A DNA stretch of 60,733 nucleotides, counting the filler, from Basidiobolus ranarum (lineage: Eukaryota): assembly GCA_040143965.1 (NCBI GenBank). It is 8 parts of 8 records of this genome, joined end to end, with 100 filler letters (N's around TTAATTAATTAA, not from the genome) between each part and the next. Parts side by side here need not be neighbours in the genome. Positions count along the whole stretch, not along the records: positions 38,069 to 45,560 come from JASJQH010007988.1; 7 more parts are not named here. The stretch is one strand, 5' to 3'. Below the pieces are notes generated by a model. It was not told where the DNA came from and searched no databases. It worked only from the letters and a program-made list of their open reading frames with translations. The translations under genes were made by a program, and so were the position numbers. Position 1 is the first letter of the stretch; each line of letters opens with the position of its first letter. Of this stretch, positions 7,526 through 59,289 are shown piece after piece.

Positions 7526-7625
7526 NNNNNNNNNNNNNNNNNNNNNNNNNNNNNNNNNNNNNNNNNNNNTTAATTAATTAANNNNNNNNNNNNNNNNNNN
7601 NNNNNNNNNNNNNNNNNNNNNNNNN
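7526..7625. other. Artificial contig linker
   Basis: 44 N + TTAATTAATTAA (stops in all six frames) + 44 N. Confidence 0.99.
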
Positions 7626-15143: not shown

Positions 15144-15243
15144 NNNNNNNNNNNNNNNNNNNNNNNNNNNNNNNNNNNNNNNNNNNNTTAATTAATTAAN
15201 NNNNNNNNNNNNNNNNNNNNNNNNNNNNNNNNNNNNNNNNNNN
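15144..15243. other. Artificial contig linker
   Basis: 44 N + TTAATTAATTAA + 44 N. Confidence 0.99.
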
Positions 15244-22758: not shown

Positions 22759-22858
22759 NNNNNNNNNNNNNNNNNNNNNNNNNNNNNNNNNNNNNNNNNN
22801 NNTTAATTAATTAANNNNNNNNNNNNNNNNNNNNNNNNNNNNNNNNNNNNNNNNNNNN
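22759..22858. other. Artificial contig linker
   Basis: 44 N + TTAATTAATTAA + 44 N. Confidence 0.99.
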
Positions 22859-30372: not shown

Positions 30373-30472
30373 NNNNNNNNNNNNNNNNNNNNNNNNNNNN
30401 NNNNNNNNNNNNNNNNTTAATTAATTAANNNNNNNNNNNNNNNNNNNNNNNNNNNNNNNNNNNNNNNNNNNN
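30373..30472. other. Artificial contig linker
   Basis: 44 N + TTAATTAATTAA + 44 N. Confidence 0.99.
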
Positions 30473-37968: not shown

Positions 37969-38068
37969 NNNNNNNNNNNNNNNNNNNNNNNNNNNNNNNN
38001 NNNNNNNNNNNNTTAATTAATTAANNNNNNNNNNNNNNNNNNNNNNNNNNNNNNNNNNNNNNNNNNNN
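37969..38068. other. Artificial contig linker
   Basis: 44 N + TTAATTAATTAA + 44 N. Confidence 0.99.
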
Positions 38069-38153
38069 TTTGGCGCCTGGAGACACATACTCCATTCGTG
38101 TGATCACTGACACAGGCAGCGACCGCTACAGCCACTACTTCAAGATCAAATGA
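38069..38153 (+). CDS. 3' end of a Kre9/Knh1-like (Ser-Thr-rich GPI-anchored family) Ig-like domain protein
   Basis: LAPGDTYSIRVITDTGSDRYSHYFKIK* matches the G..Y.I......YS..F.I pattern, but only 27 residues are visible. Confidence 0.45.
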
Positions 38154-38944
38154 GTATATCCGCATGTCACTATAGCGCTCTTCTTTCTTACACTTGCAAT
38201 GTCTTCTAGATACCGAACTAAATTCGCTTGTGTTTATCCCAGTTATCGAAATAAGATCTTCTAATTTCCCTTAGATACCGAAATAAATTCTCCTTCTTTT
38301 AATCGATAGTTTGAAAGGAAGTATAAGTCAGGTTACGAAAATACCTAGTTCCTAACGTAGAATGTGATAATTAATAAGATGGAGTTCTACTGATACTCTA
38401 CATATTGTATATGGGCCTTTCGAATAGCTGAAGTAGAGGACGGTTTAGAGTGTAAAATATATTGGAGAATATACAATCGTACAACTGCTCATTCCAACAG
38501 CAAATATGAACAGGAGGTAACTCTGATATTAACCGGTACGTTAACTCCTAAAAATACATATTTGCATCCATTACACTTAAACCAAGCACACACATATAAA
38601 TAGCTATATCTTGTGATTTCAACGTCTTGATGGTATTGATTTTGCCAGTTTTTTGAACCAACAGTATACTTGTAAAACCATCTAAAAGTAAGCATTAGTC
38701 GAAAAGTAAGCATTAGAATAGCTAAAAAACTGCTTCCTTCTCGTAAAATAGGATTGGTTAGAACTTCTTTTTTATATCAACACCAATAGGTATTACATTT
38801 GACATCTCTTTCATCAAGCTCTCGTTGTGGGTCATGATAAGTAACTTAGGTTTGATTATTCAAGATCGACATTAACATCATGCCCTTTAGTGACTATCTT
38901 AATTTGTAACCATTGTAATCAAACTTCTCAACTTAACAATACCC

Positions 38945-39041
38945 GAGTTCTATTTAAGCGAGAACTTGAGGATTTTATTTCAACTTGAAGCAACTCTGAG
39001 CTCTATTTAAGCGAGAAATTCAGTATTTTATTCAAACTTAA
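38945..39041 (+). repeat. ~53-bp degenerate tandem repeat (2 copies)
   Basis: GAG(T/C)TCTATTTAAGCGAGAA..T.AG.ATTTTATT..AACTT occurs twice. Confidence 0.6.
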
Positions 39042-39169
39042 TGATAATTTACAGTTGCATTCAACAACTTCTTTATAATAAGTATTGCGCCACATGGGAC
39101 TGAATGCATTTAGAGAATATTTCAATGTGGTGTATATGCTTCCTAGTTTCAAGTTATTGGATAGTGAAA

Positions 39170-39945
39170 TTTTTTCCCGATTCCATTCAAACCTTAAATC
39201 CATATTTGTCAAATAATTGGACGCACTTGTTGGTATGATATCTCGGGGTAGAATGGACAGTGCATTCACTACACGACTCATAACATAAGGCAACGTGCCA
39301 CCAGCATGAGAAAGAATGATATCAATGTCCGGACATGAACGGAAACAACCTGACAAGACAAGATCCACGGCCGTTCGTGTGGTGCTTTGTGGATAATCAA
39401 CTATAGGTCGGGGTAAGAAACCAGCAATGAATTTGGGCAGAATGGTAGCAGCAGTGGGATGAATGAACACAAGGGCTTTGTACTTGTTCAGTTTCTCCCA
39501 AATTGGAGCAAATTATTCATCTGACAACAGACAATCCCTATAGGATGTCATAATAACTACTCCGACTGCCTTCTTTTGTTTTTCAAAGATATATTCTAGT
39601 TCCATTAGAGTTCCCTCTACATCAGTCCAGTCAGGCGTAGATGTAAAAAATGCCATACGATCTGGATGTGCCTCAATAATGTGGCCCACCTCATCGTTCA
39701 GTGTGCGTGTAAGAGCGCGTCCTTCAAGTCCATTCCCGGCAATGGCAGGTCCAGGAGATGTAATTGAGAGAACAGCTTTTTGGATATCATTATCATCCAT
39801 AAATGATAGGCATGATTCCTCAGTCTAATCAGGATGTGCAAATCCCGATGGATCACCCCCAGCTTCAACGATAGCTTGACGTAGCACTGATGTGACGATG
39901 TGAATGTGAGTGTCAATGTATCTCAGTGCCAAGATATGCTTGAAA
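39170..39945 (-). pseudogene. Amidohydrolase_2 family decarboxylase pseudogene (6-methylsalicylate decarboxylase-like)
   Basis: IDTHIH metal motif, GGDPSGF, AVLSITSPG, PIWEKLNKYKALVFIHPT, DYPQSTTRTAVDLV, IILSHAGGTLPY. In-frame TAG (39827-39825) and TAA (39515-39513); C-terminus lost; no introns. Confidence 0.85.
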
Positions 39946-40264
39946 TCAGCGAAGTTAAAAAGCAAATTAATGTCCTCAGTTCTTTATATATCGGTAAACC
40001 TAGGGAAGATCCATAGCGCCGTCCCACCGGAAAATATATGTATGTTGAATCCCGATCTCATCATACATTCACTCCGTGATTTCACCGGTCCCGATAGGTT
40101 GTAGTCTCTATAGTTCTACTTCTCATTGAGGATTTGACGTTACTGCAACCTTTCACTTCTCGATTTTGACAGCCATGAATTTTATCATTTTAATGCTGTA
40201 GTGGCGTTTTATTAGGCTCCAAAAATCACGAAATCATATACAACCATGCCAAAAATAGTTACGG

Positions 40265-40853
40265 TTACACGTGAATCTTAAGCAACGTCTCTGTATTACG
40301 ATAAGCAATCATCGCCAACTCATCCTCGGTGACTAAGCCACTCTTTGAGAGTTCCTCCATAAACTGGCTTCCTTCTTCATTGCTCGCAAAAGGATAGTCA
40401 ACGCTATACAAAATCCTATCCATTCTGGTTGTACGAATGAGACAGACAAACGGAGTGAGCGTGAACATTCCACTGGTCGTGATCCATACATTATCCTCCT
40501 AGACCTTCTTCAAGTTGCGTTTGTTGGGCACCATGGTAGACAGGAATGCATCAGTTCGATCCAGCATATATGCCCAATAACGATCTTGAGACGCGGATAA
40601 CGATCGAAAAGTCGTGAACAAACGTAAAATATGTAGTCCCGTATCTGAATGCCAACCCCAGCCAAAAGTAGAGAGGATACCAGTGGTGTCTTCAGAATAG
40701 TTTCCCTGATATTGTGACATCATATCCTGGGTGGCATTGGTGGGATGAATGTAAATTGGTACATCAAGCTCCTGAGCGCGTTCAAAAAAGGGCCAGTGTG
40801 ATTCGTCATCATAGAATTTACCATTTGCATGATTAGATATAAGCGCACCAACA
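40265..40853 (-). pseudogene. Amidohydrolase_2 family decarboxylase pseudogene (2,3-dihydroxybenzoate decarboxylase-like), 5'-truncated
   Basis: VGALISNHANGKFYDD...ERAQELDVPIYIHPT, GWGWHSDTGLHILRL, LFDRYPRLKIVIGH (out of frame), V*EDNVWITTSGMF, DRILYSVDYPF. The N-terminal half is replaced by an LTR fragment. Confidence 0.88.
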
Positions 40854-40854
40854 A

Positions 40855-41012
40855 TGTAAGTTTGAAGCTTCTAGCACAAGTTTGAAAAACCTATATATCT
40901 GAGAACTTCGAAGTAAATTCCAATAGTGAGTGATATTTTAGTGAAATATGGAGTAACTAAACACTGAGCTATATAAGAGTATATAGATGTTTAGGCTATG
41001 CTAATTTCAACA
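40855..41012 (-). mobile_element. Copia LTR family A fragment
   Basis: CTTCTAGCACAAGTTTGAAAAA...GCTATGCTAATTTCAACA matches family A. Confidence 0.8.
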
Positions 41013-41023
41013 ACAAATACCTG

Positions 41024-41900
41024 TTAGGATGCTTGTGGAGAAGCCGCCTGGAGCTTGATTCTCAGGTCTTTATCAATGTTAGCTAATAAAAAGTTTGGAG
41101 CAAAAGTATAGCCTACTTCGAATACCTCAGCAATGTTTAAAAGTGTTAATGGCTCCAGGGTGATCACTGACGCAGCTACTTGAACTTGATTTGCTCCTGT
41201 TACAATGGGTGTGATGTGATTCTCAATTAGCCCCGCTACATGGTCACATCCGACCCAATTCAATATGGTGTCTGTGGATTCAAGCTGATAATCGTCAACC
41301 TTATACTTGGCTGCAACAAGTACGTTTACAATAGTGGGTTCAAAAACTTTTTGGTTACCTGTAGAGCCAGAGGTAAGTAACAGAACAGTCACCTCGCTCA
41401 TGGTACTTTGATTGGTGAAATTCAGGGATTCGAGTTCAGTGAAGTCGGTATTAGCATCAAGGCTCTCTCAGGCTTTGAAACTGTCAATGGGTTGAACATT
41501 CAGATTTGGAGCCAAGGAAGTGAGTTCGTAGCAATCTTTCTGGCGGCAAAGAAAGATTGGCTTATTGAAAGGTGTATCGAGATGTGAGAGTTCTATTTCC
41601 TTTTTCTCAATCACCTTTCAAGAACACATGGCAGAAAACCGGCGGCCAGCGATCCCTAAAAGTGATCGATTGTATCCTGATAATTGTCAAAATACAGCAC
41701 GACTATTTGACAAGAGGTATTTTGAGTGAGTACATGTATCTCTTTGCCAATGTTATATGCCCACGTAAGAAGACTATTGTAGGTGTCGAATGAAGGATTT
41801 GCAATATCGTCCGAATTGTTGATGTAGTAAAGGTTAGATGGTTCTTGGCTGTGTCAACGAGAACCTGTAGTAAATTCATGTTGCTGCTTGATTGAGACAT
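41024..41900 (-). pseudogene. Adenylate-forming enzyme (acyl-CoA synthetase / FAAL / NRPS-like A domain) pseudogene, 3'-truncated
   Basis: A3 P-loop LLTSGSTGNQK, LNWVGCDHVAGLIENH, GANQVQV, YTFAPNFLL. Frameshifted N-terminus; ends next to the LTR fragment. Confidence 0.82.
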
Positions 41901-44555
41901 GTTGTATAATATGCTAAATGGTTATTAATTACAAGATACAGTTAGTTGTATGTCTGCATGAAGATTTCCATCCATATTACTCCGACAATTACACTGCCTA
42001 CGAGAGGTTCTTAATAACCATAACTACGATACACTGATAGCGCTACTGATAGGCTTAGTTTCATATCGTACCTTATTTTTGTTTGCTACAGTTCTTATTG
42101 GGCGACAATTGGTACCTCGTTCAAAGAATCAATGATCGATCAGTTGCTAGGTGTGAAGAATTAATAGCTAGTCGTTAAGTCTTGTAGTAAAATACAGTTT
42201 AATTATAACCTAGAGCTAAGAGAAACTATGATCACCACCATGAATTTTAACTAACAAGTATCTATAACTAAACTAGAGATGTAAGTAACGCACGTAATAT
42301 CCTAGTTTCAATTCCTCAACACTGTACGAATGATCTAAATAGACAAACGAAGGGAAGTATCCGTTAGAAGTACCAAAATATGTATTGAATACAACAACAT
42401 CGGAAACAAAAAGGGTTAGGTAATTTAACCAGCTATGAAATATCTGAGTGCATTATCAGGATTTTTCTAGACTTTGACTACTAGTATAAATATTCTTGAG
42501 TGGATTCTGCTATAACTCAAGAATCTCAGTTTATCATGGTCATCATTTCCTCATTTCTCCTTTTGATACTTGTTGCTACTTCCTAAAAACCTCACATTAG
42601 GCTGTGAAGGATCTAACAGGGCAAAATGACAATGATTGAGATTAACATAAAGCATTACAGGCCGAGAATTTCAGGCTGTATAATTTTATTCTCACTATGG
42701 ATATCGAGCAACATCGAAAAGAGGACTTAAATGTTTACTCCTTGACATGATCCAAAAAGACCTTACGATACTAAACAGTTCGAAATTTTACTTGCTCAAG
42801 CAACAGCTGAAGAAGACCGAACGACTGTAACTACTATGATCATATCTACTATTACATCCCAACTTCACATGCTTCTTGTCAAATTAATGAGCTACAACGG
42901 AGCTTGATGGCTGACGCTTGATGATTAACAATTACTTACGAGAGAGTCTTGGTACCTATCTCAGCAACCTCAGTCTCAGATCAGCAGTGTTGGATTTCAA
43001 TTGCTATAATGAAAGGTAGATAATATGTGATAATGTGTAATATAGTCAGCTTACTACACTAAATTCATCTCTAACCATAATCTAACCCTAAGCGTTAATG
43101 ACAAATAAAAATACATACATATCAAATCGCTGTCAAGGTTAGTGTTATATATGTATTATATCATATTAACGCCATTTGTATATATACATTTATTGATGAT
43201 CAAGGTCATGCATTTAGAAGTAAAATCTACGTACCCAAATTCAATATATATGTCTATAGATCTACCATAGAGATCATTTAAGAGAGGGAGGAGAGGAGTG
43301 AAGGCAGCGTAGGGTTGCTAATAAAGGTTAACATGAAGATCATTGCATTCACTGTTCCCTCTTTACTAGAAGCACAGTATTTAAGATTGACCTTGCTAAA
43401 TCTATAATGGCATCCATCTCATTGAGTTCTTTTTCCCTATCGATACATATAATGGTCAATAGAGCAAGTTAATTAAAATATTAGAATTGAATGCTTTAAA
43501 GCTAAAACAAACCTTTAATCATTTCCCCCTCTTACACCTATTTTAATACATGGATATACATCTGTAGCCAGGAACCATTGATATTCCAGATGCAAACCCA
43601 ATATATACAAGGAATACCCTAGTCCTCCCTCAACAGCTAATATTTGGATGTCACCTCAGCTGTATATGATCTATAATACTAAAACATGGAGCCGACTATT
43701 CAAGTTTGTGAGATATTCTATCGCTATCACCTGGCAAATTATGGGAGTTGATTCACAATTATTCGATGATTGAGTTCCTAGAATGCTAGATAAATATTCA
43801 ATGTTTTCCTGATCACTGGTTATTAGAAATGAATGCCACTTCAACACTGTACGCAAAATAATGATCCTAAAAGTGAAAATAATTGCACCTTCGAAATCAT
43901 GGAACGTGATCCTCCAGAACCGTAAAATGGATAAGAATTAACTCAACTGCCAACAATACAGTTCATTCCAATATTGTTATCAAGAAGCACCTCATGAGGT
44001 GCAGGATTCATTTGTTAAATTCTTTGTTTTGAATCGTGATAAATATGATGGTTTAAACTTGATTGCAGTCAGTATATTTGCACATGTCGAATTAGCAAAA
44101 CTTGCTACTTTTTCTACCAGAATATTGATATAATCATATTTACACCAGCAGAGGCTGTCTTACCGGCTCTATTGCCACATTGTTGTCCAGATGGAGAATC
44201 TATACAAAGTTATGCTAACTAACCTGATACTATTGTTACACTATTCTTGATGCATGTAGCCAATGATTGTATTGCATCTAATGTGATAGTTAGACATTTG
44301 CAATATCTGCTAACACTCATGTGTACTCCATTATTCTTGATCAGTAGTATTGGCTTAACCGAGATATATTCAAGAGATTTATTATCTAATTCGGTTAATC
44401 GATGATAAGGAGCTTGGTACAAGTATTGCCAGTTGGAAAGGGGTATGGTTGGGCTATTGGTAAGCTCTAAGTGGGTATAAGTAGGTATAGGTAGGTATAA
44501 ATGGGCATACACGGAAATAATGAGAAGAGGGAAGACAGATTAAACTCCCAACAAT

Positions 44556-45560
44556 CTACTCTGCTTTTATATCAGAAGGTTCACTAACTCGGAATATACC
44601 CCAGAGACCATCAAATATATTGGTGAACATGACTCCATCTCGGTATGCCCAGTCGCCTGGATACGCACTGGCGTAAAAAGTGTTACTCTGTGTGAACCCT
44701 GGCGTGATGGCATTGTTCGTCGCCGAGAACTCACGTCCTGGTCGGGCATTCTGTGACAACCATCCATGACCATGTAAGTGCCAGGATGCGGGTCTCAGTT
44801 TGTCCAAGCCACCAAGAATGCGAAAGCGTTGTAATACACCAGATTGAGCACTGAAGATTCGAGTGGATGGTTGATCCGTACGAAGCCAATCAGGTGCACT
44901 TGCTGGATGATTTCGATAATTAAAGGCTTTTTGTCCTTGATCTACATAATCCACATAAATAAAGCCATTGCTCGGATCGATGTTAGGTGGTGCGTCACCA
45001 TTTTGATCACCATCTTCTATGTTGTCTTCTTCATCAATTCCTAGATCGGGAACTGGTTTATTCAGATCCCCATTTTGGAATAAGCGCAATCCACTCTGAA
45101 CAATCAGAACCTTATCTTGATAGATTAGTGACTTGGAGCCATAAATGTCACCAGCATGTGAGGGTGAAGCGCTGTGATAATACACATCGGTCTCTGCTGA
45201 GTACCACGAATCAGGTTGATCGTGAGGACCCAAAATGATCAGAGCACCAACCAGGCCATGATGTTTATGGTTTCTCACATCAGCGAAATCTTCTAAGAGG
45301 ATTGGACCTAGGGGTTGATCAGCATACCATGTGTAAGTTCTCGTTTGCTTTGGGGGAACGGTCTGATCTGAATTGAAGCCAACGTTGCTTCCATCATTGT
45401 CGCGAACATCATATCGAAGCAGGTCGGCACGTATAGAGACATGATTAGAGACTCTACGGTCCGGATTGTCAGCCGGAACTTGAGGAGCAAAAGGTTCAGG
45501 ATGGAGCTTGTCAGGTAGATTGTTTCTCAAATGTATTTGAATAAATTCTCCGGTACGGCG
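44556..45560 (-). CDS. Multicopper oxidase, MnxG (manganese oxidase)-like, C-terminal two cupredoxin domains (5' cut by contig end)
   Basis: Open and intronless to the contig edge: RTGEFIQIHLRNNLP...SNHVSIRADLLRYDV..NDGSNVGFNSDQTVPP.QTRTYTWYAD..LG...L.DFADVRNHKHHGLVGALII; DQGQKAFNYR; WHLHGHGW; PGDWAYRDG....IFDGLWGIFRV. This motif series matches my recollection of Bacillus MnxG domains 5-6. Confidence 0.8.
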   Translation of the reverse strand, partial: RRTGEFIQIHLRNNLPDKLHPEPFAPQVPADNPDRRVSNHVSIRADLLRYDVRDNDGSNVGFNSDQTVPPKQTRTYTWYADQPLGPILLEDFADVRNHKHHGLVGALIILGPHDQPDSWYSAETDVYYHSASPSHAGDIYGSKSLIYQDKVLIVQSGLRLFQNGDLNKPVPDLGIDEEDNIEDGDQNGDAPPNIDPSNGFIYVDYVDQGQKAFNYRNHPASAPDWLRTDQPSTRIFSAQSGVLQRFRILGGLDKLRPASWHLHGHGWLSQNARPGREFSATNNAITPGFTQSNTFYASAYPGDWAYRDGVMFTNIFDGLWGIFRVSEPSDIKAE

Positions 45561-45660
45561 NNNNNNNNNNNNNNNNNNNNNNNNNNNNNNNNNNNNNNNN
45601 NNNNTTAATTAATTAANNNNNNNNNNNNNNNNNNNNNNNNNNNNNNNNNNNNNNNNNNNN
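45561..45660. other. Artificial contig linker
   Basis: 44 N + TTAATTAATTAA + 44 N. Confidence 0.99.
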
Positions 45661-45829
45661 ATCATGGGAGTTACAAGATATATCTGGTAATGGAGGGCAA
45701 TTTTGGTTTATTATAAGCCGTTTCTAGGCAATTTCATTACACCAAGTTTACCATCTGATTATTTTACTGCCATTCAAAAAGTGTTCAAAATCTAAATCAA
45801 AATTGGCTGCCAAGTCAAAGCCTGCTGGC

Positions 45830-46240
45830 ACATAAGGAAAAAAATCAGCAAGAACAGAGGACTTAATTGATCATAGCCTGACATAAGATCAAATTTGCAA
45901 AGACTTTGGCACTACCAAGTTGATAGAATAGCTCTTCCATCTGGGCAATAGAATATTTGTTCCTTGTAGTAGCTGAGTTCAAAGCACAGTAGTCAACACA
46001 AATCCTCATACATCCATCTTTTTTCTTAACCAACAAGACTAGTTCTCCCCAAGGTGACTTTCTTGGTCAAATGTATCCTTATTACAAGAGTTAGTTCATC
46101 TGCTTCTTAACTTCTTGTGGCTGCAAGTCTACCTCTCTGGCTTGTTAAAGATTGGTCAATTTATTGGGAAATACTTCCTGATAATTCTTCAATACCTTTG
46201 TCATTGCATTAGAGATAGCATTCAGCTCCTTGTCATGTGC
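45830..46240 (-). mobile_element. Ty3/gypsy reverse transcriptase relic
   Basis: VLKNYQEVFP...EVKKQMN.LL..GYI.PRKSPWGELVLLVKKKDGCMRICVDYCALNSATTRNKY...EELFYQLGSAKVF, with stops. Confidence 0.85.
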
Positions 46241-46429
46241 CTACTGTGACAAATTACTGGAGCATGGTGTGACTGTTTACTAATGCTGATTGATATCCAG
46301 ATAACTACTAACTGATGGTACTGATAATACAATCTGGGGATAATTTTGAAAAACTGATAATACTAAATATTGCATAACTTAACTAATATCCATGCTGCCA
46401 TGATTAGTAATTCAAAACAAAAAAGATAT

Positions 46430-46890
46430 TCAGGTATCTGAGAGGAACTTTTGATCTGGTATTAGAATGTGGTGAAACTCCTGGTGCACTAGATTTGGAA
46501 AGCTACAATAATGTGTATTGAAGAAACAACTTTGATGGTAGTAACTCAACAACTGGATGTGCTTTTCTCTATTGTAATGGAGCCATGACTTGGAACAGCA
46601 AGAAGCCACTGGCCGTAGCACTTTCCACTACAGAGCAGAGTTTTTGGCTCTCTCCGCTACAGCACAAGAATCTATATGGTAAAGAAAGTCCCTTACTGAC
46701 ATAAGTTACATGCAAAGCATGTTATTAATACATTTCAAGATAATCAAAGTTTTATTGCACTAGCTTAAACACCTATATTTCATGCTAAAACACAGAATGT
46801 GAACATCAGGTATCCTTTTGTGACAGAAGAAATGGAGAATGGCAGAATGTTACTAGTCAGTGGCCCTACTGAAGTAGTGATAAACCAAAT
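46430..46890 (+). mobile_element. Ty1/copia RNase H relic
   Basis: Frameshifted VALSTTE..F.ALSATAQE.IW, QDNQSFIALA*TPIFHAKTQNVNIRYPFVTE. Confidence 0.75.
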
Positions 46891-47605
46891 GATGTTTTCT
46901 TTCAAAGCTGTTGAAGCCTGGAACTTTGCACAGAATGCTTTATACTTGCCAAAGTATGATAGCTTGTGGTTGCTTTTGGGCCTGTTGATTTTTACCAGAA
47001 ATGTGACAAGAAGGTTTATAATATGACGTCTTTAGAGAAATATTCATGGAAAATGAAATAAAATTAGATTCTTTAATTTTGCTGTTCCAGGCATCTTCAA
47101 CAGCATTTATCAATGAAGTTAAATAATATTCACTTTTTGAAGCTCACAATAGAAGCTTCTCCCAATTTTACCACCATCAATAGTGTATTGAAATCTGATT
47201 GAGCAATAGTTTTTGTAGAAACAAAATAAATTAACTAACTGCTTTCCAGCAGATATTAGAGTATACAAGCCACAGTACTTCTCAAATAGAGCTTTAAGGT
47301 AGCAATAAGAAAGCAAATAGTTGCTTTTGGGTAATGAGTAATGACCTTATTAAGTAGATGGAAAGCATGTGGCTAATGTTAAATGAACTGGCACAATATA
47401 GATCAATCTGTTTTGGCAATGAAATTTATCCAAGAATTTTAACTATTATTGTAAAATGTTATGCATTTTGTATAATAACATTGCTGTTTGCATTAATAAT
47501 CCTGAAAATTTCAAATATGTTTAATTCATGGATATTACATAATGAGCTGCATCAACAAAATTAATTATGATTCAATCTGAATCAATTTATTGCAAAAGAC
47601 AAAAG

Positions 47606-47937
47606 TGTTAAGGAGATTTGGAATTGTTTTGGACAAGATTTGGATTTGTAAATTAGACACTTAAGTTTTATTGCATTGAATATGTCCTATTTATAGTTTA
47701 CTATGAAATAGGACTATTGGATGTGCCCAGATCATCACAAACATGCCTGTAAAGTGTGGGTGAAAGTTTGAGGTGATTTGAAGAAATTTAGAGAAAATAG
47801 TGAAAATTGGTAAGAGTGATCTAATTGATATTTCTATCAATTAGAGCAATAAACACACATTATTGAATGGCAGAATTGAGTGCTAAATAACCAGAATATT
47901 GATAAAACTACTACTAAATAGTGGTATGCTACTTACC
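47606..47937 (-). mobile_element. Diverged copia LTR-like sequence at the 3' end of the pol relic
   Basis: Begins TGTTAAGG on +; weak similarity in layout to family A; directly follows the RNase H end of the element at 47940-50165. Confidence 0.4.
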
Positions 47938-47939
47938 TT

Positions 47940-50165
47940 GTGCTTTAGCTAAAGGTTGGGTCAATATGTCAGTTATCATTTCTTCAGTAGAGCAATAGAC
48001 AAGTTCACTTATGTCATTCTCTATTAATTTGATGACAAAATGATGCCTACTATCTATATGTTTTGTTCTAGCATGAAATGTAGGATTTTCAGCTAATGAA
48101 ACATAACTCTGAGTTTCTTAAAATATAGTAATAGCATATTTTTGCAGGTATCCCAAGTCTGTAAATAACTTCCTTAACCACATAGCTTCTTGGGTAGTAG
48201 CAGAAGCAGCCATACACTCTATCTTTGTAGTGGACAGTGCTTAGGTAGGTTGCTTCTTACTATTCCAAGTTTTGGCTCCATTACCGTAGAGAAAAGTGTC
48301 CCCAGTTATTGATCTTCTGTCATCAAGGTTTCTTCCTCAGTCTGCATCACTATAGCCTTCAGAATTTGTGCATCAGCAGTGGGAGAGTATTCCAGAACTA
48401 GATCTACAGTGCCTCTCAAATATCTGAATATTTGCTTTATGGCAGTTTGTGCTCAGATCCCGGACTTTTGAGATATTGGCTGCCAGTTCCCACTGCCACA
48501 GCAGTGTCTGGAGGTGCACCAACCACTGTATACATTGAATTACCCACCATGGATTGATAATGGAACTCCTGGCTTTGATTTGAGTCATTTTGGGCCAAAA
48601 GAGATAAAATTTTGTTGTATTTCACATTGATATCCATTGGTGTTAATACAGGCTTGCTATTCCCCATGTTGAAGTGTTTTAAGATGTCTAGGATGACTGA
48701 TTCAGCATGATTGTCTGATTGGGTTTGTCTCCCTCAATTTATATTTCTGGAAAGTAACTTAATTCCCCCATGTTGGTAATTTGAAATTGGTTTCATAACC
48801 TGCTTTTTGTCTGTTTAAGTGCTCTTGGATTACTTGTGGATATAGTCATCCACATATAGTGCCAAGATAAAGATCCTATTTCTGGTGGTTGGATGTTAAT
48901 AATGTGTTCTGGTGTGCATTTTTGGAACTCTAGTGATTCCAAATAGACATATATCTTCTTTTGCCATGCTCTGGGTGCTTGCTTGAGTTCTTATAGCATT
49001 TTATTCAGCTTACTGACTATATCAGGATGCTTGCATCAGTAAATTTTTGTAGTTACTCCATGTACATCTCTTCTGTGAGATTTCCATTCAAAACGGCCGC
49101 TTTTACTTCTGTTTGATATAAACAAAGGTTATGGATGGCTGAGAGTGCAAGGATGAATCTAATGTAGCTAAACTTAGCTATGGGAGTATGTGTTTCATTA
49201 AAATTAAATCCTTGAGTCTGAGAATAACCTTTAGCTACTAATCTTACTTTGTAACTTTCTATAGTTCCATCAGTTCAATCTTTGATGCTATAGACCCATT
49301 TGCAACCAATTGGCTTTCTCCCTAATGTAAGAGGACTTAAAACCCTTGTTTTATTGTCCTGAAGTGAAGAAAGCTCATCAGACATTGCATTTTCCCATAA
49401 TTATGATTCTAGACCCTCCAAAGCTTGATCTGGAGTCTATGGCTTGACACAGAATACTGCATAAGCAAATATATCATCATTGGGAGTGTTCCACCAGTTT
49501 CCTGGCTTATTTCTCCTTCTGGATGATCTTCTGGGTCCTGAATCATATTCTGATGTAAATGGGACTGTAATTTTTGTTGAATAGGGCTTGGATACTGCTG
49601 GAATCTTTTCAGACACTTCCTAAATAGAGCTGATTGTGTTTTCTGGATCAAGAACAGTGATTTGAGGTGAGAAATTTGCTTTTTCATCAAAAATCACATC
49701 CCTGAACTGAATTAGCTTTGGATATTTGGTATCACACAGTCCCTAGGCCTTTAAACCATCACAGTAACCAAGAAATATGGATTTTCTGCTTTTGGATTCC
49801 AACTTAGAGAATTTTTGAGATGGAGTTAGGAAATATACTGAGCAATCAAAGATTCTCAGATAATCCACACTTGGTTTTGATCCATATAGGGCTTCAAATG
49901 TTATAAAATTTTGTAGCACTCTTGTTGGGAATCTGTTGTTGATATAGACTGCAGTAGAGACAGATTCAGCCCAATATTAATAATCTAACTTGTGATAATG
50001 TGATAGTGATCTTGCCATCTTCATTATGGTCATGTAAGCATGTTCTGCAACTTCATTATGCTGTGTATTATTACGTACAGTAGTTTGTTGCTTAATTCTA
50101 TGTTTAGAACAAAAACTAGCAAAGTCTTTGGAGCAGTATTCCCCACCATCACCACTGCTTAGTAC
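47940..50165 (-). mobile_element. Decayed Ty1/copia pol (integrase core, RT, RNase H), copy 1
   Basis: DGGEY, QHNEVAEH, YWAESVSTAVYI.NR, LESKSRK.IFLGY, RKPIGCKWV, YKVRLVAKGY, YQSMVG, GYSDAD...DDRRS, FHARTKHIDSRHHF, ITDILTQPL; many stops and frameshifts. Confidence 0.92.
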
Positions 50166-50169
50166 CCCC

Positions 50170-53149
50170 TTTTTTTCCCTTATATCTAACTTATATGTTG
50201 ATAATTCAAATTGTGCTTTAGCTAAAGGTTTACTTAAGATGTTAGCAATTATTTCTCCAATAGGGCAATTGACAAGTTCAATTATGTTGCTCACTATTGC
50301 TTTAATAACAAAACAATGCCGAATAGCTATATGTGTTGTTCTAGTATGAAATGTTGGGTTTCAGCTAATGAAATACAACTATAATTATCTTCAAATGCAT
50401 TAATAGCATGTTTTTGCATTTATCCTAGCTCTGTAAATAACTTCCTTAATCACAGAGATTCTTGTGTAAGTGCAGAGGCAGCCATATACTCTGCTTCTTT
50501 AGTGGAAAGCACTAAGGCAGGTTGCTTCTTACTACTCCAAGTTATGGCTCCATTACCACAGAGAAATTTTACCCAGTTGTTGATCTTCTATCATCCAGGT
50601 TTCTTCCCCAGTCTGCATCACTATAGCCTTTGAAATTGTGTGCATCAGGAGTGGCAGAGTACTCCAGAACTAGATCAACGGTTCCTCTTAAATACCTGAA
50701 TATTTGTTATACTGCAGGTTTGTGCTTAGATCCTGGATTTTTGAGATTATGGCTGACAGTTCCCACTGCCACAGCAATGGCTAAACATGTTCTTACCATT
50801 GTATACATTAAACTACCCACCATGGATTGGTAGGGGAACTCCTGGCTTTGATTTAAGTCATATTGGGCCAAATTAGAAGAAATTTTGATATATTTCACAT
50901 TGGGATCCATTGGTGCTGATACAGGCTTGCTCTTTTCTATGTTGAAACACTTTACAATAACTAGGATGTATCTTGACTGATTCAGCATGATTTTTTGATT
51001 GGGTCTATCTCTCTTGATTTAAATTACAAGGAAATAACTTAATTCACCCATATGAGTCATCTCAACTTGGTTTGCCAAGCTGCTTTTTGTCTGATTAAGT
51101 GCTTTTAGATTGCTTGTGGCTATGATTAAGTCATCTACATATAGTGACAAGATAAGGATCTAACTTCTGGTAGTTTTGATGTATATACTGTAATCAGCTG
51201 TGCGTTTTGGATCTCTGGTGCTTCCAAATAGGCAGCTATTGTCTTGTGCCATGCCCTAGGTGCTTGCTTGAGTCCATATAGCAATTTTGCAGTTTATCAA
51301 GCATTTCAAGATGTTTTGTGTCAACAGACCCATCTGGTTGCTCCTTATATACCTCTTCTTCTAGATTTTCATTCAGAAAAAATGTTTTTATATCTATTTG
51401 ATGTAAATCAAGGTTATAGACAGCTGAGATCAACAGGATTGAATTAATGGAGCTAAATGTAGCTACTGGAGCAAAAGTTGCATCAAAATCAACTCCTGGT
51501 GTATGGGAATAACCTTTTTGCAACTAATCTGGCTCTGTACCTATCTGTGCTTCCATCAGCTCAGTTTTTGACTTTTTAGACCCATATACAACCTAGCAGT
51601 TTTCTCCCTGATGGTAGATGACTTAAAACCTTTGTTTTATTGCCATGAAGTGAAGAAAACTCATCAGACATTGGTTTTTCACATAATACTTATTCTGGAC
51701 ACTCCAGAGCTTGATCTGGAGTCTATGGCTTGTCACAGAATACTGCACTACCACATACATCACTATTAAAAGTATTCCACCGGTTTCCTGGCTTACTTCT
51801 CCTTCTGGAAGATTTTCTGGGTGCCAGATCATCTTCTGATATAGTTGCTACTGTAATTTTGGTTAAATTGGACTCCTATACAGCTGGAATTTTGCCAGAC
51901 ACTTCCTGATCAGTGGTGATGGTGAGTTCTGGATCAAAAACTGTGATTTGAGGTGTGAAATTTGCTCTTTCACCAAATATCTCATATCTGCACTTACTGA
52001 ACTTCTGATTTTTGGTATCAAACAGTATATAGGCCTTAGAACCATCACTGTAACCAATAAATATGCATTTTCTTCTTTTTGGTTCCAATCAAGAGCATTT
52101 TCAAGCTGGAATTAGGCAATATGCTGTGAAACCAAAGATCCTGGGATGATCCACCCTTGTTTTTGATCCGTATAGGGCTTCAAATGGAATAGAATTTTGT
52201 GGCAGTCTTGTTGAGCATCTGTTTTGAATATAGACTGCAGTGTAGACAGATTCAGCCCAATATTGGTAATCTAACTTTTGATCATGTAACAATGATCTTG
52301 CCATTGCCATTATGGTCCTATTAGCACATTCTGCAAATCCATTTTTGCTGTTAAGTATAATGTACAGTAGTTTGTTGCTTAATTCTGTGTTTAGAACAAA
52401 AACTAGTTAAGTCTTTAAAGTGGTATTCTCCACCCTTATTACTCCTTAGTAACCTTTTTTTTGTGCTGCTTCTTTCTCTGCCATTGCTTTGTGATGTTTG
52501 AACATAGCTAAGGCTTCAGAATTTAGTCTGAGAAAGAATGCCCCAAGTATATCTTGTCTTGTTATTAATGAAAGTCATAAAGTACCTTTTCCCACTTGGT
52601 GAGATGTTTTTCATGGGCCCACATAGGTCAGAATGAATCAGTGCATAAATCTGAGTGGATCTGATCTGTCCAGAGCATGCAAACAGCTGTCTGTGATGTT
52701 TTCTATATATGCAACCTTCTTGCAGAACCAATTTAGTGACATTTTCAAATTCTAAGCCTGACACAAACAGATTTCAGATCATTTGGGTTGGTTTTTGTTC
52801 CCCAATGTGGCCTAATATTCTATGCCACGTTTGAAAGCATATCTCACCAGTTCGGGCTAAGGCTGCATTGCTCAGAATGCATTATGTTGATTTCTAGCTT
52901 GTAAAAGTTTTGAGTTTTGATCACAGTAGCTAATTTCAATTTTGCAGATGGTGTAGCTGAATTTTGGTCTAAATTGATTACAACTATGCCCTAACCAACT
53001 GCATCAAATGCATAGTCATCACCCAACTGGAGTTTCCTTGTTTGGATGGGTTTTAAGCTGGAAAACCAATCTTTCTTGTTTGACATATGCTGGAAAGCTC
53101 CTGCATCAATCAACCACATTTTTGAGTCTTTTTTAGTGATTACTGATAG
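50170..53149 (-). mobile_element. Decayed Ty1/copia pol (protease to RNase H), copy 2, head-to-tail with copy 1
   Basis: WLIDAGA (protease), WHRILGH, LIHSDLCGPM...YFMTFI, YWAESVYTAVYIQNR, PGVDFDATFAPV, LHQIDIKT, YVDDL, YQSMVGSLMY, GYSDADWG, ILSKPL. Confidence 0.93.
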
Positions 53150-53249
53150 NNNNNNNNNNNNNNNNNNNNNNNNNNNNNNNNNNNNNNNNNNNNTTAATTA
53201 ATTAANNNNNNNNNNNNNNNNNNNNNNNNNNNNNNNNNNNNNNNNNNNN
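53150..53249. other. Artificial contig linker
   Basis: 44 N + TTAATTAATTAA + 44 N. Confidence 0.99.
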
Positions 53250-55888: not shown

Positions 55889-56893
55889 TTACTGAAGTAG
55901 AGACCAAGCTCTACCAGGTGCGTCGTTCTCCCAAGTGTCAACACAGCCAACACCTTGGCCATCTGGGGTATCAATACCACATCTTCCAACGATGTGTAAA
56001 GTAGTGCCATGCTTTCCAGCCAACTCGATGTTGGTTGGGTAAGTGAAAGAAACTTTGATAGAAGCCAAAATTTTTCCTTTAGGTGAAATCTTGAGTACTT
56101 CTTGACCACCATGACGAACAACAAATAGATTTCCTTTAACATCACTGCGAATACCATCGATATTGAGATGAGCGGTATTGACTGTAGCAAAATCAAAGAA
56201 TAATGTTTTATGGCTGATACTTCCCGTCACTGAGTGAACTCTATATCTCCAGATTTTGTTGGATACCGTGGTTGAGTTTCTATCTACAGCTTCAGAAACA
56301 TATAAATATTGATCATTTGGACTTAATTCAATCCCATTTGTACGGCCGAGGACATCTAAGCGTCTGCTTTTCCCTTCTTTAGTGCAAAGCCAAATATCAC
56401 CGTCACCGACCTGAGTATCCTTTTGGAATCTCATTCCAGACAAATATATCCTACCATTTCTAGCAAGAGTGATATCATTTGGTTGGATGAATTTGGGATT
56501 GGAGCAGTGTGTTTTGCCGGTAACTTTTCCTCTAGAGTCCACCTTAACTTTAACCACCCTATGATTGATATAGTCCGCGGCGTAGGCTACTTTATAATCA
56601 TGATGGGCTTCCTTGATGCCGAATCTGATTCCGTTGAAGGCAGTTCCAGGTGTTTGGGTATCCTCGTAGAAAAGAGATTGCTTAGGAGTCACATAGCCCA
56701 GAGTAGGTAGAGTAGAGTTATTTCCGTAATTTACTGCGTAAACTTTTCCTTCCTTATCCACAGAGGTACCCTCAATGAAAGGTCCAAACTTGGAATTTTT
56801 GGCGGTAATCAATGGCTTTGCTTGATATTGTAGAATGGCGCTGGCTCCACCAAGGATCAGCAGAGCTGAGAAGCAGGATAGTTTGAAGGACAT
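55889..56893 (-). CDS. Secreted SMP-30/gluconolactonase-like six-bladed beta-propeller (paralog 1)
   Basis: Signal-peptide-like N-terminus; IEGT, FNGIRF, QPND, TNGIELSP, IDGIRSD, PTNIEL motifs; intronless, 334 aa. Confidence 0.9.
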   Translation of the reverse strand: MSFKLSCFSALLILGGASAILQYQAKPLITAKNSKFGPFIEGTSVDKEGKVYAVNYGNNSTLPTLGYVTPKQSLFYEDTQTPGTAFNGIRFGIKEAHHDYKVAYAADYINHRVVKVKVDSRGKVTGKTHCSNPKFIQPNDITLARNGRIYLSGMRFQKDTQVGDGDIWLCTKEGKSRRLDVLGRTNGIELSPNDQYLYVSEAVDRNSTTVSNKIWRYRVHSVTGSISHKTLFFDFATVNTAHLNIDGIRSDVKGNLFVVRHGGQEVLKISPKGKILASIKVSFTYPTNIELAGKHGTTLHIVGRCGIDTPDGQGVGCVDTWENDAPGRAWSLLQ

Positions 56894-58296
56894 GTTGAAT
56901 GAGTGAAAGAAAGCAACAGAGTCAGGATCTCCGGTGTTTAAATAGAGGTAGGAGAAATTTCCGAGAAAATCGAAAGCACAGTTCCTTTGAATCGGTGATA
57001 AGGAGAATAAACAAATTCGAAGTGGTATTTATAGTGAATTTCGGAAGAGCACTTCGATTGACGGTTTACCTTGATTAATTTGGACAACTCTTGTACTCTT
57101 ACCTCAAGATTCAATTTACCTTAATAAAGTGCTCTTAGTTACCTACTACTTTGTACTTGTCTGGTGTGCTACCATAACGACATCTGCCAGATTATGGAAT
57201 TCCTTTTGACAACCACCTTCTTCGTCCAATGTGCCACGCTACGTAATCATGTGCAATGAACTTTTCTTGAGATAAACAATTTGGCCATGCTTGAAGAAGA
57301 GCTCTAGTTATCTTCATTTTGCCTTCTATCATATTCACTTCATATCACATGCTAGAGTACGGTCGGAGTTGTCTAAATAAGAAGTGTACCCGTATAGGTT
57401 AAACCTGTTTGAGCTCCCGAAGAAGGTTGGACAAAATCAATGAGCGATAAGGGATTTGTTTAGTAGATGACTAGGTTGAAATTACTGATGAAATTTACTG
57501 AGAACGTCTCAAACAATCAAAACCCCACCATCACATTACAGCTCTTATGATCACTTGGGCTAGTTAATATGTTCATTTGGAGCAATAATGCATAAATAAT
57601 CAGTACTCTTGGCCAGTGTAACGTTTGACAGATAGTCGGGTATTTGACTTTGAGATCCACGATGATCCTCCTCCCATTCACAGCCTTTGTTATAGAAATA
57701 CAATAATGATGTTGACATGTAAGGGAATCTAGAGGCCTTATCAAGTAGTAATGTTTTAATTAGACTAAATCATCATATACTGGACTGGTTCACTAAAAAA
57801 AGAAGCTGCAGTACGATTACCGGATTAGCCCCAGTGCAATTTAATGTGAATGCGGGTACAAGCGCGAGTGTAAAGGACTCTCCAAAGCACCATCGACCAC
57901 GCGTATAATAGATCGGTTGGCTATACTGATAACAGTTGGTAGTTAGTAAGCCTAGCCTTAATTATAAAAGTTAGATCCAATTTTGGGTGGTCGATCTAAT
58001 CCTATACAAGTAAAATAGGCTTTATTTCCTTGTTCGCACGTTCTATAGTGAATCTATGCATATTGTAACTCAGTTTACTTGCTTAGGACCAATACGCTAG
58101 TTACCGAGCATCTCTCATGAGTTCCCGTAATCAACAATATGGTGATATTTAAGATTCCTTCTGGTTTCTATTATTCATAAGGTTTCAGGTATAGTAAGGC
58201 TGATGAGCTCCTTCAGTATAAGAGCAATGATTGCTCCTATGTTTAAAACCATACTTTGGCATATTTTCTCTTCTCAGTAACAACTACCTACGTACA

Positions 58297-59289
58297 ATGT
58301 TCCTCTTTAAGCTGCATTCAATCTCCATTCTGTTGACCATCTCTGGAGCAACCGCCGCCATCGCTCAATATAAGACAAAACCATTGATAACCTCAGACAA
58401 GTCCCAGTTTGGACCATCCATTGAAGGAACTGGCGTAGATAAAGCTGGCAATATCTATGCAGTGAATTATGGGGATGCCACCAGCTTAGCAACTCTAGGT
58501 CAAGTAACTCCACAAAGATTATTTTATGAAGACAAAGTCACCCAAGGTACTGCTTTCAATGGAATAAGATTCTCGAGAGGAAATAAGACCGTCGCCTATA
58601 CTGTCGATTATATTAACCACAGGGTAGTCGAGTTAACAGTAAATGGGCCAACAATCTCCTCAAGGAACCACTGTTCTAGTCCTGACTTTCTTCAACCAAA
58701 TGACCTCGCATTATCCAAGTCGGGATACATCTACCTGTCAGGTATGAAATGGCAAAGCAACGGGCAAGTAGGTGACGGTGATCTTTGGGTGTGTTCACCT
58801 AGCGGCGTACCCAAGCGTTTGGATTTGTTAGGACGTACAAATGGAATTGAACTCAGCCCAGATGACAAGTATCTTTATTTATCCGAAGCTAACAATCAGA
58901 ATGGTACTCCAATCAGCAATAAAATTTGGAGATATAAAATAGATCCAAATACCGGTAACGTATCGAACAAGTTCCTTTTCTTTGACTTTGCCAAACTTCA
59001 AAGTCAAAGTGTGGATATCGATGGCATGCGCACTGATATCTCCGGTAATCTATTCGTGACTCGAAATGGTGGTCAGCAAGTGGTGAAATTGTCAAGAAGT
59101 GGTAAAGTCTTGGCCATCATTAAGACCTCTTTCTCCTCCATTACTAATCTGGAGTTTGGAGGAACTCGAGGTAAAACTCTGCATATCGTTGGTAAATGCA
59201 CTGACAACTCTCCTAATGGAGAAGTGGTTGGTTGCGTTGATACTTGGGAGAACAATGTACCTGGTAGAGCTTGGTCTATCCTTCAGTAG
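58297..59289 (+). CDS. Secreted SMP-30/gluconolactonase-like six-bladed beta-propeller (paralog 2)
   Basis: ATG at 58297 gives the signal peptide MFLFKLHSISILLTISGATA; same motifs as paralog 1 and the shared C-terminus VGCVDTWEN..PGRAWS.LQ; intronless. Confidence 0.9.
   Translation: MFLFKLHSISILLTISGATAAIAQYKTKPLITSDKSQFGPSIEGTGVDKAGNIYAVNYGDATSLATLGQVTPQRLFYEDKVTQGTAFNGIRFSRGNKTVAYTVDYINHRVVELTVNGPTISSRNHCSSPDFLQPNDLALSKSGYIYLSGMKWQSNGQVGDGDLWVCSPSGVPKRLDLLGRTNGIELSPDDKYLYLSEANNQNGTPISNKIWRYKIDPNTGNVSNKFLFFDFAKLQSQSVDIDGMRTDISGNLFVTRNGGQQVVKLSRSGKVLAIIKTSFSSITNLEFGGTRGKTLHIVGKCTDNSPNGEVVGCVDTWENNVPGRAWSILQ

Follow-up and report, generated by a model that had tools for sequence, protein, structure and literature searches.

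A multicopper-oxidase-like coding fragment was analysed in a 60,733-nucleotide stretch of DNA from Basidiobolus ranarum (NCBI GenBank assembly GCA_040143965.1), hereafter the window. The window is made of eight contigs of 7484-7525 bp, placed in descending order of length and joined by seven artificial linkers. The fragment, P0001, is encoded at 44556-45560 on the minus strand of the contig JASJQH010007988.1, which fills positions 38069-45560. It belongs to the MnxG family, lies in the fungal genome and is one of at least five related loci there. As a whole, these observations are probably best explained if P0001 is one B. ranarum copy of an old, multi-copy family of MnxG-type oxidases that eukaryotes received from bacteria. 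The region would then be the 3′ part of a true gene of the nuclear genome, one copy of a family with two subclades. Judged by its sequence, the gene truly belongs to the MnxG family and is fungal, and the family in fungi appears to be old, multi-copy, ameliorated and shared with chytrids. Among the bacterial enzymes that mineralise manganese, MnxG-type oxidases are the best understood, and to our knowledge no substrate other than Mn(II) is known for this family.

The coding fragment and its family

On the minus strand, the stop-to-stop frame extended from 44556 into the run of N at the contig edge, and its real coding part was 44559-45560. Translation of this part gave 334 codons, followed by a TAG stop codon (44556-44558, minus strand) that was read directly in the sequence. 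The 5′ end of the frame is cut by the end of the contig, where a linker begins at 45561, and the 5′ part of the gene, about 940 codons, is not on the contig. A preliminary description of this DNA had reported an open reading frame (ORF) of more than 330 codons reaching the contig edge, and the translation confirmed it. The ORF had also been called intronless, which is correct for the 1 kb present on the contig and applies to that 1 kb alone. Moreover, every motif quoted in that description was found as written in P0001. The motifs were RYDVRDNDGSNVGFNSDQTV, TYTWYAD, DFADVRNHKHHGLVGA, DQGQKAFNYR, HLHGHGW, PGDWAYRDGVMFTNIFDGLWGIFRV and VSIR.

P0001 consists of the C-terminal cupredoxin domains 5 and 6 and the segment between them. 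Domain 5 (residues 1-156; 45093-45560, minus strand) contains S42-I-R44, for which the family consensus is S-x-H, and the histidine cluster H98/H100/H101 of the motif RNHKHHG, and its strands were found at residues 6-155 in the AlphaFold2 (AF2) model. The CGT codon of Arg44 is at 45429-45431 (minus strand), as established by sequence reading and conservation counts, at a position that is mostly His elsewhere in the family. Cu-oxidase_3 was the sole Pfam family found in P0001; it matched residues 62-112 at 23.8 bits, with the tail of the model. Domain 6 (residues 224-334; 44559-44891, minus strand) contains HLHGHGW (H261/H263/H265) and the C-terminal GLWGIFRV, has neither an HCH motif nor a Cys, and showed AF2 strands at residues 235-326. 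The two domains are separated by an acidic, poorly conserved linker or insert (residues 157-223; 44892-45092, minus strand), which was delimited by low pLDDT and alignment gaps. The pLDDT was below 50 at linker residues 170-186 and 190-223, and the linker columns were gapped in most bacterial rows; at positions 129 and 135, for example, 187-207 of the 262 rows have gaps. The AF2 model, obtained with a 27-sequence alignment, was of moderate confidence (pLDDT 69.4, pTM 0.70) and showed two beta-sandwich domains with the disordered acidic linker between them.

The family of the fragment was examined with both sequence and structure searches. In a phmmer search of the PDB, residues 16-329 of P0001 matched residues 906-1207 of the MnxG chain 9bxa_A with an E-value of 6e-38. 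The aligned region is the last two of the six cupredoxin domains of MnxG, and weaker matches were obtained on earlier domain pairs. The full-length relative P0002 matched the same chain at E=4.1e-196 over residues 62-975 and beyond. In the Foldseek search with the P0001 model, 9bxa_A was also the top match (E=7e-17, TMq 0.62), and SLAC-type two-domain laccases came next (E about 1e-10, TMq about 0.5). These results were in agreement with the earlier proposal of an MnxG-family multicopper oxidase as opposed to a three-domain laccase or ferroxidase. On sequence similarity, the assignment of P0001 as the C-terminal quarter of a six-domain MnxG-type multicopper oxidase is sound. The complete oxidase is predicted to have about 1,270-1,340 residues and six domains, and to be homologous to bacterial MnxG over its whole length.

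In the profile collections, NF041487 (copper_ox_MnxG) was the only NCBIfam match. This model describes the Pseudomonas-type MnxG equivalog, with a profile of 1894 positions and a curated cut-off of 3100 bits. P0001 scored 35.6 bits, full-length fungal proteins 183-248 bits, and the Bacillus-type protein P0041 295 bits, all of them below the cut-off. Other multicopper oxidase families were considered as well. Membership in the three-domain fungal laccases, Fet3 or ceruloplasmin was rejected, since no chain of these proteins was among the five PDB sequences matched at E<=10. P0001 was not placed among the two-domain laccases (SLAC) either: there is no Cys in its 334 residues, the sequence E-values were 0.07-0.11, and the likeness is in fold only.

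Relatives, genomic residence and origin

An exhaustive HMMER search over 1.84 billion cluster representatives returned 498 matches at E<=1e-3, with 48 of them at E<=1e-30. The best matches among the longer proteins were all from Basidiobolus, followed by bacteria at no more than 41% identity. P0002 (B. meristosporus K493DRAFT_374135, 1270 aa, annotated as 'Cupredoxin' or hypothetical) was 69% identical to P0001 over 97% of the fragment, through its residues 958-1270. P0022 (B. ranarum K7432_013123) was 86% identical in a 95-residue overlap (residues 927-1021), where 13 of the 95 residues differ. Because P0022 comes from the same genome as P0001, it represents another copy there, as opposed to an ortholog. 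Altogether, at least five MnxG-like loci were found in B. ranarum, including P0004, P0005 and P0007, and three in B. meristosporus, where P0003 and P0006 accompany P0002. The six-domain relatives P0002 to P0006 are 1270-1342 aa long. Public databases already list these Basidiobolus proteins, labelled 'Cupredoxin' or hypothetical, from assemblies with contigs of up to 127 kb. The gene model of P0002 lacks about 40 residues before domain 5 (near residue 955) that all other fungal copies have, which is probably due to a mispredicted intron.

Relatives were also found in other eukaryotes. Names were read for 29 of the 150 listed among the 498 matches, and these 29 included four further eukaryote proteins. 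Two were from Fimicolochytrium jonesii, EV422DRAFT_539939 and EV422DRAFT_603527 (P0364 and P0367), which follow each other in accession number and share a contig of 459,799 bp. The others were HK104_006708 (P0379) of Borealophlyctis nickersoniae and g76826 (P0418) of Paulinella micropora. The MnxG-type relatives thereby span two chytrid orders and one rhizarian amoeba, and the chytrid and Paulinella homologs were 35-40% identical to P0001. In bacterial genomes, 438 of the 587 scanned stretches encoded relatives, in keeping with the bacterial character of the wider family that had been proposed. The best 80 of these 438 stretches came from Myxococcota, Cyanobacteriota, Alphaproteobacteria, Actinomycetota and many Bacillota, with identities of up to 38%. 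In addition, a large MnxG-like clade was seen in gut Clostridia, namely Lachnospiraceae, Clostridium perfringens, Romboutsia and Ruminococcus (L012, L023, L025, L026, L028, L030, L033, L034, L037 and others), and neither MnxE nor MnxF was found beside these genes.

The position of the fungal genes was determined with a careful, site-heterogeneous tree of domains 5-6 (53 rows) and a careful full-length tree (39 rows, 1270 columns). Deep nodes were read from these trees and not from the FastTree or other quick trees. L014 and L053 were omitted for stops in their matches, as were rows of fewer than 250-270 aligned residues, P0022 excepted. In the tree of domains 5-6, Basidiobolus formed one group (99/99), in which P0001 was paired with P0022 (100/82) and then with P0002 (100/95), and Fimicolochytrium P0367 joined the genus with support of 90/90. 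In the full-length tree, the support was 100/100 for Basidiobolus and 98/99 for Basidiobolus with P0367. All ten eukaryote rows of this tree grouped together (91/89), also in 92% of 200 bootstrap trees. Their sister was a bacterial clade of 23 rows (99/96), and the Bacillus-type proteins fell on the outgroup side; the outgroup protein P0041 is essentially the solved enzyme of Bacillus sp. PL-12 (2368.7 bits to 9bxa_A). The eukaryotes group inside a bacterial radiation that stands apart from the Bacillus MnxG branch.

The preliminary description regarded the gene as horizontally acquired, with a product that could give the fungus a bacterial-type route of manganese or metal oxidation. On this view, a bacterial MnxG gene would have entered this fungal lineage recently. 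The overwhelmingly bacterial make-up of the family, with its 438 relatives in bacterial contigs, agrees with such a transfer, as does the lack of an intron in the 1-kb fragment, and the acquisition of bacterial genes by Basidiobolus has been reported (Tabima 2020, PMC7466969). The trees and identities point the other way. The best bacterial identity is 38-41%, the nearest gene outside the genus is from a chytrid, and two old Basidiobolus subclades each have members from both B. ranarum and B. meristosporus, with P0001 placed beside K7432_013123 and K493DRAFT_374135. When Basidiobolus was forced to group with the 23 bacterial rows, a grouping picked after the tree was seen, the cost was 61.6 log-likelihood units, and the approximately unbiased (AU) test rejected it (p-AU 0.008). 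Codon usage was host-like as well: GC content at third codon positions (GC3) was 0.362 in P0001 and 0.383 in pooled host genes, compared with 0.54-0.97 in the nearest bacterial homologs (L001-L010), and the relative synonymous codon usage of P0001 correlated with the host at 0.55 (host controls 0.61-0.80). There are also at least five and three loci in the two species, and a recent transfer is highly improbable.

The comparisons instead point to an old bacterial-to-eukaryote acquisition of the MnxG-like family, followed by duplication. In the simplest reading of the trees, an old transfer was followed by duplication before or during fungal diversification and by many losses. Spread between eukaryotes, in place of one ancient transfer with losses, may also have given this distribution. 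For an old transfer common to chytrids, the donor would be a non-Bacillus branch of MnxG without MnxE and MnxF, and the later changes would include the adoption of host codon usage and, in several copies, the gain of a secretion-type hydrophobic segment at the N-terminus. The patchy clade of Basidiobolus, chytrids and Paulinella is a test case for ancient transfer with losses versus spread from eukaryote to eukaryote.

Residence in the fungal genome was examined on the contig itself. The window strings together unrelated contigs, so that arguments from linkage across its linkers are invalid. Fourteen runs of 44 N, paired around TTAATTAATTAA, form seven linkers of the type N44-TTAATTAATTAA-N44 (7526-7625, 15144-15243, 22759-22858, 30373-30472, 37969-38068, 45561-45660 and 53150-53249), and the linker at 45561-45660 is the true edge of the oxidase contig. 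A host copia long terminal repeat element had been placed on the same contig as the oxidase. This linkage fails because the linker separates contig 38069-45560 from contig 45661-53149, and the degenerate copia-type ORFs (49056-52088, minus strand; RVT_2 and SH3_retrovirus in Pfam) are on the latter.

The loss of the copia linkage, together with a short contig (7.5 kb) that ends inside the gene, would suit bacterial contamination or a chimeric assembly, in which the ORF would not be fungal DNA. Against this, the GC content of the contig is 0.386, like that of the other seven (0.36-0.395 over all eight), and the GC3 of the ORF is that of the host. The 3 kb downstream of the oxidase are AT-rich (GC 0.353) and have no long ORF. 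Furthermore, a dispersed host repeat of about 155 bp (40858-41016) has copies on window contigs 1, 3, 4 and 5; blastn of the oxidase contig (contig 6) against the other seven gave 10 matches of 69-91% identity, with E-values down to 6e-30. The contig also contains a fungal-type amidohydrolase pseudogene, 6-methylsalicylate-decarboxylase-like and with two in-frame stops (39006-39962, minus strand; Pfam Amidohydro_2 and read-through), whose best matches were Mortierellomycotina and Mucorales proteins at 58-65% identity. The closest relatives of P0001 have been annotated in two Basidiobolus assemblies, where their contigs reach 127 kb. In a Pfam scan of 133 ORFs from the eight contigs, eukaryote-type genes were met on six of the seven other contigs, among them LisH/WD40, Sof1, L13e, two-exon Ras, RabGAP, UBR and RRM proteins. 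The Sof1 ORF was 100% identical to the sof1 protein recorded for B. ranarum. Contamination of the oxidase contig appears very unlikely, and we give almost no weight to a non-fungal ORF. The GC content, GC3, shared repeat and fungal-type neighbour all support the residence of the gene in the fungal genome, as first described.

Copper sites, state of the copy and proposed function

The canonical motifs of multicopper oxidases are HxxHxH and HCHxxxHxxxxM in domain 2 and two HxH motifs in domain 3. In the full-length alignment, HxxHxH and HCHxxxHxxxxM of domain 2 and HxH and HDH of domain 3 were kept in all full-length fungal rows covering them (P0002, P0022, P0003, P0004, P0005, P0006 and P0364). 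Two gene models had gaps here: P0367 is without the aligned HDH stretch of domain 3, and P0379 is without the domain-2 stretch. Domains 5-6 never carry the HCH motif. P0001 cannot hold a blue (type-1) copper because it has no Cys. The part of the enzyme present in the window would thus be its non-catalytic C-terminal quarter.

The preliminary description had read the SIR sequence as a possible sign of remodelled copper sites, and this was not supported. The canonical sites are in domains 2-3, and residue 44 is in domain 5. In the 262 bacterial rows, position 44 was His in 207, Asn in 38 and Ser in 10. In the 12 eukaryote rows it was His in 10, including P0002, and Arg in P0001 and P0022 only. 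Four other histidines of P0001 were conserved to different degrees, with H98 in 246, H101 in 232, H263 in 174 and H265 in 189 of the 262 bacterial rows. By these counts, Arg44 departs genuinely but modestly from the family pattern, at a His that is semi-conserved and non-canonical.

A further question was whether the copy in the window is a dying or truncated duplicate, that is, a young pseudogene in a family that is functional as a whole. The neighbours of the oxidase on the contig are consistent with decay, being pseudogenes or fragments. Besides the amidohydrolase pseudogene, there is a second amidohydrolase remnant with a frameshift and a stop (40268-40870, minus strand; Amidohydro_2 on two separate ORFs, with the break seen in the sequence) and an isolated AMP-binding (adenylation) domain fragment (41027-41467, minus strand; PF00501, E=2e-6, 27.3 bits, below the cut-off of 29.9). 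In addition, just the last 334 codons of the gene are on the contig, Arg replaces a His that is kept in 79% of bacterial rows, and the exact P0001 protein was absent from a collection of 15 billion proteins. Other features of the ORF argue against a dying copy. No other coding stretch on the contig looks intact, and the oxidase fragment has 334 codons free of stops. Among the columns conserved in at least 90% of the 262 bacterial rows, P0001 keeps 26 of 28, the same as its paralogs (23-26 of 28). Its end branch in the tree of domains 5-6 is 0.10, shorter than those of P0022 (0.15) and P0002 (0.28). Arg44 also occurs in P0022, which looks otherwise intact, and 48 of the 262 bacterial proteins have Asn or Ser at this position. 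Because the conserved columns are kept and the branch is short, the sequence gives no sign of decay within the ORF. The preliminary description had called the enzyme apparently intact, which was not supported, as about 940 codons of the 5′ part are missing from the contig. A young pseudogene is rather unlikely, and the window copy may be catalytically competent.

The partner proteins MnxE and MnxF were searched for at 80 bacterial loci and in the window. Pfam and NCBIfam have no models for either protein, and none of the seven flanking ORFs scanned (7/7) gave a family. Queries were taken from the Ureibacillus manganicus locus (L073), where two small ORFs that precede the oxidase gene matched MnxE (E=6e-27) and MnxF (E=6e-15) of 9bxa; these queries, checked against 9bxa_B and 9bxa_E, were used in an iterated search of six-frame ORFs. 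Both partners were present at 13 of the 80 bacterial loci, all from Bacillota. None was found at the loci of the bacterial clade nearest to the fungal genes, where 7 of L001-L011 hold at least about 2.5 kb upstream, and none was found in the window, the part of the genome covered by the search. The absence of mnxE and mnxF from this DNA, which had been pointed out before, was thus confirmed for the window; it is uninformative, since only 13 of the 80 bacterial loci carry both. It is also expected, because the loci of the nearest bacterial clade are without them.

Hydropathy suggested a further difference from the bacterial proteins. The maxima of 15-residue hydropathy at the N-terminus were 2.4-3.1 in P0004, P0005 and P0006, three of the five full-length Basidiobolus models, and 2.07 in one Fimicolochytrium model, compared with 0.58-1.43 in 21 bacterial proteins. 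From the hydropathy values and inspection by eye, this segment is read as an acquired secretion signal or anchor. The following function is proposed from the ligands of the paralogs. A probably secreted oxidase would take single electrons at a type-1 copper in domain 2, and a trinuclear copper cluster located between these domains, 2 and 3, would then reduce O2. Domains 5-6 would close the six-domain ring; they are without a blue-copper site and carry a semi-conserved histidine cluster, one member of which is Arg in P0001. Mn(II) is suggested as the substrate by extrapolation from the known MnxG enzymes, and Mn(II) oxidation by the fungal protein is put forward as a hypothesis.

Several points weigh against an old, transferred family of secreted MnxG-type oxidases. 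P0001 covers domains 5-6 only, with about 940 codons of the 5′ part outside the window, and the fungal clade is about 29-31% identical to Bacillus-type MnxG in these domains. The P0003 model has no hydrophobic N-terminal segment, and that of P0002 is weak (1.38). In the trees, fungal monophyly was moderate (80/53 full-length, 83/65 in domains 5-6), and the Paulinella branch is very long (about 3), with unstable placement in the tree of domains 5-6. Composition or branch length may draw the eukaryote rows together, which would inflate their group, and the grouping used in the AU test was chosen after the fact. The sample of names read may conceal more eukaryotes or a closer bacterial donor. Finally, the locus may be decaying, as neither neighbouring amidohydrolase is intact and only a fragment of the AMP-binding domain is present.

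A wider proposal is that Basidiobolus, the spizellomycete and rhizophlyctid chytrids and Paulinella share a secreted, MnxE/F-independent six-domain clade, derived from a single ancient transfer and composed of true Mn(II) oxidases. This we consider doubtful. If it is true, eukaryotes would have an enzymatic route to manganese oxides other than the one through the laccase-like oxidases and Mn peroxidases found in Dikarya. Active fungal proteins would be an MnxE/F-free, eukaryote-exported version of the enzyme that is useful for biochemistry, and they would bear on manganese cycling by gut- and soil-dwelling early fungi.

Other features of the window and comparison with known systems

Some further features were seen on the contigs of the window. 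The two amidohydrolases and the AMP-binding fragment of the oxidase contig may be what is left of a small secondary-metabolism cluster. The repeat of about 155 bp has several copies on contig 3 and looks like a host mobile element of the short, non-autonomous kind. On contig 7, RVT_2 and SH3_retrovirus were each met twice, which suggests two decayed copia copies, and a short reverse-transcriptase-like ORF (45863-46066, minus strand) looked gypsy-like by eye only. Contig 8 contains two long, divergent, intron-free ORFs (55892-57028, minus strand, and 58231-59286, plus strand) with SGL domains (SMP-30/gluconolactonase/LRE-like).

In the literature searched, no paper joining MnxG with Basidiobolus or Chytridiomycota was found, nor any that assigns MnxG-type oxidases to eukaryotes, and the supplements of surveys of horizontal gene transfer (HGT) may list these genes. 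The main texts of Tabima 2020 (PMC7466969), Ciach 2024 and an mBio 2024 HGT survey contain no mention of copper, cupredoxins or manganese.

Compared with known systems, the fungal protein is most like MnxG of Bacillus sp. PL-12, the oxidase of the Mnx complex (PDB 9bxa). The two share homologous domains 5-6, the whole chain in the case of P0002, and the layout of the copper motifs, which lie in domains 2 and 3 and not at the chain ends, and the PL-12 enzyme was the top fold match. They differ in the low identity of domains 5-6, in the placement of the fungal genes on a different branch of the tree, in the hydrophobic N-terminal segments of the fungal proteins, and in the absence of MnxE/F near the closest bacterial relatives and in the window. 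The Pseudomonas-type MnxG of NF041487 was the only NCBIfam match, with scores far below its cut-off. With SLAC-type laccases the fragment shares the two-cupredoxin-domain fold, but P0001 has no type-1 Cys and marginal sequence similarity to them, and it matched no three-domain fungal laccase, Fet3 or ceruloplasmin chain at E<=10. The chytrid and Paulinella homologs group with Basidiobolus, and differ from it in their low identity and long branches. The nearest relatives of P0001 are K493DRAFT_374135 and K7432_013123, which form one clade with it; the former keeps His44, and the latter is another copy in the same genome that differs at 13 of 95 residues.

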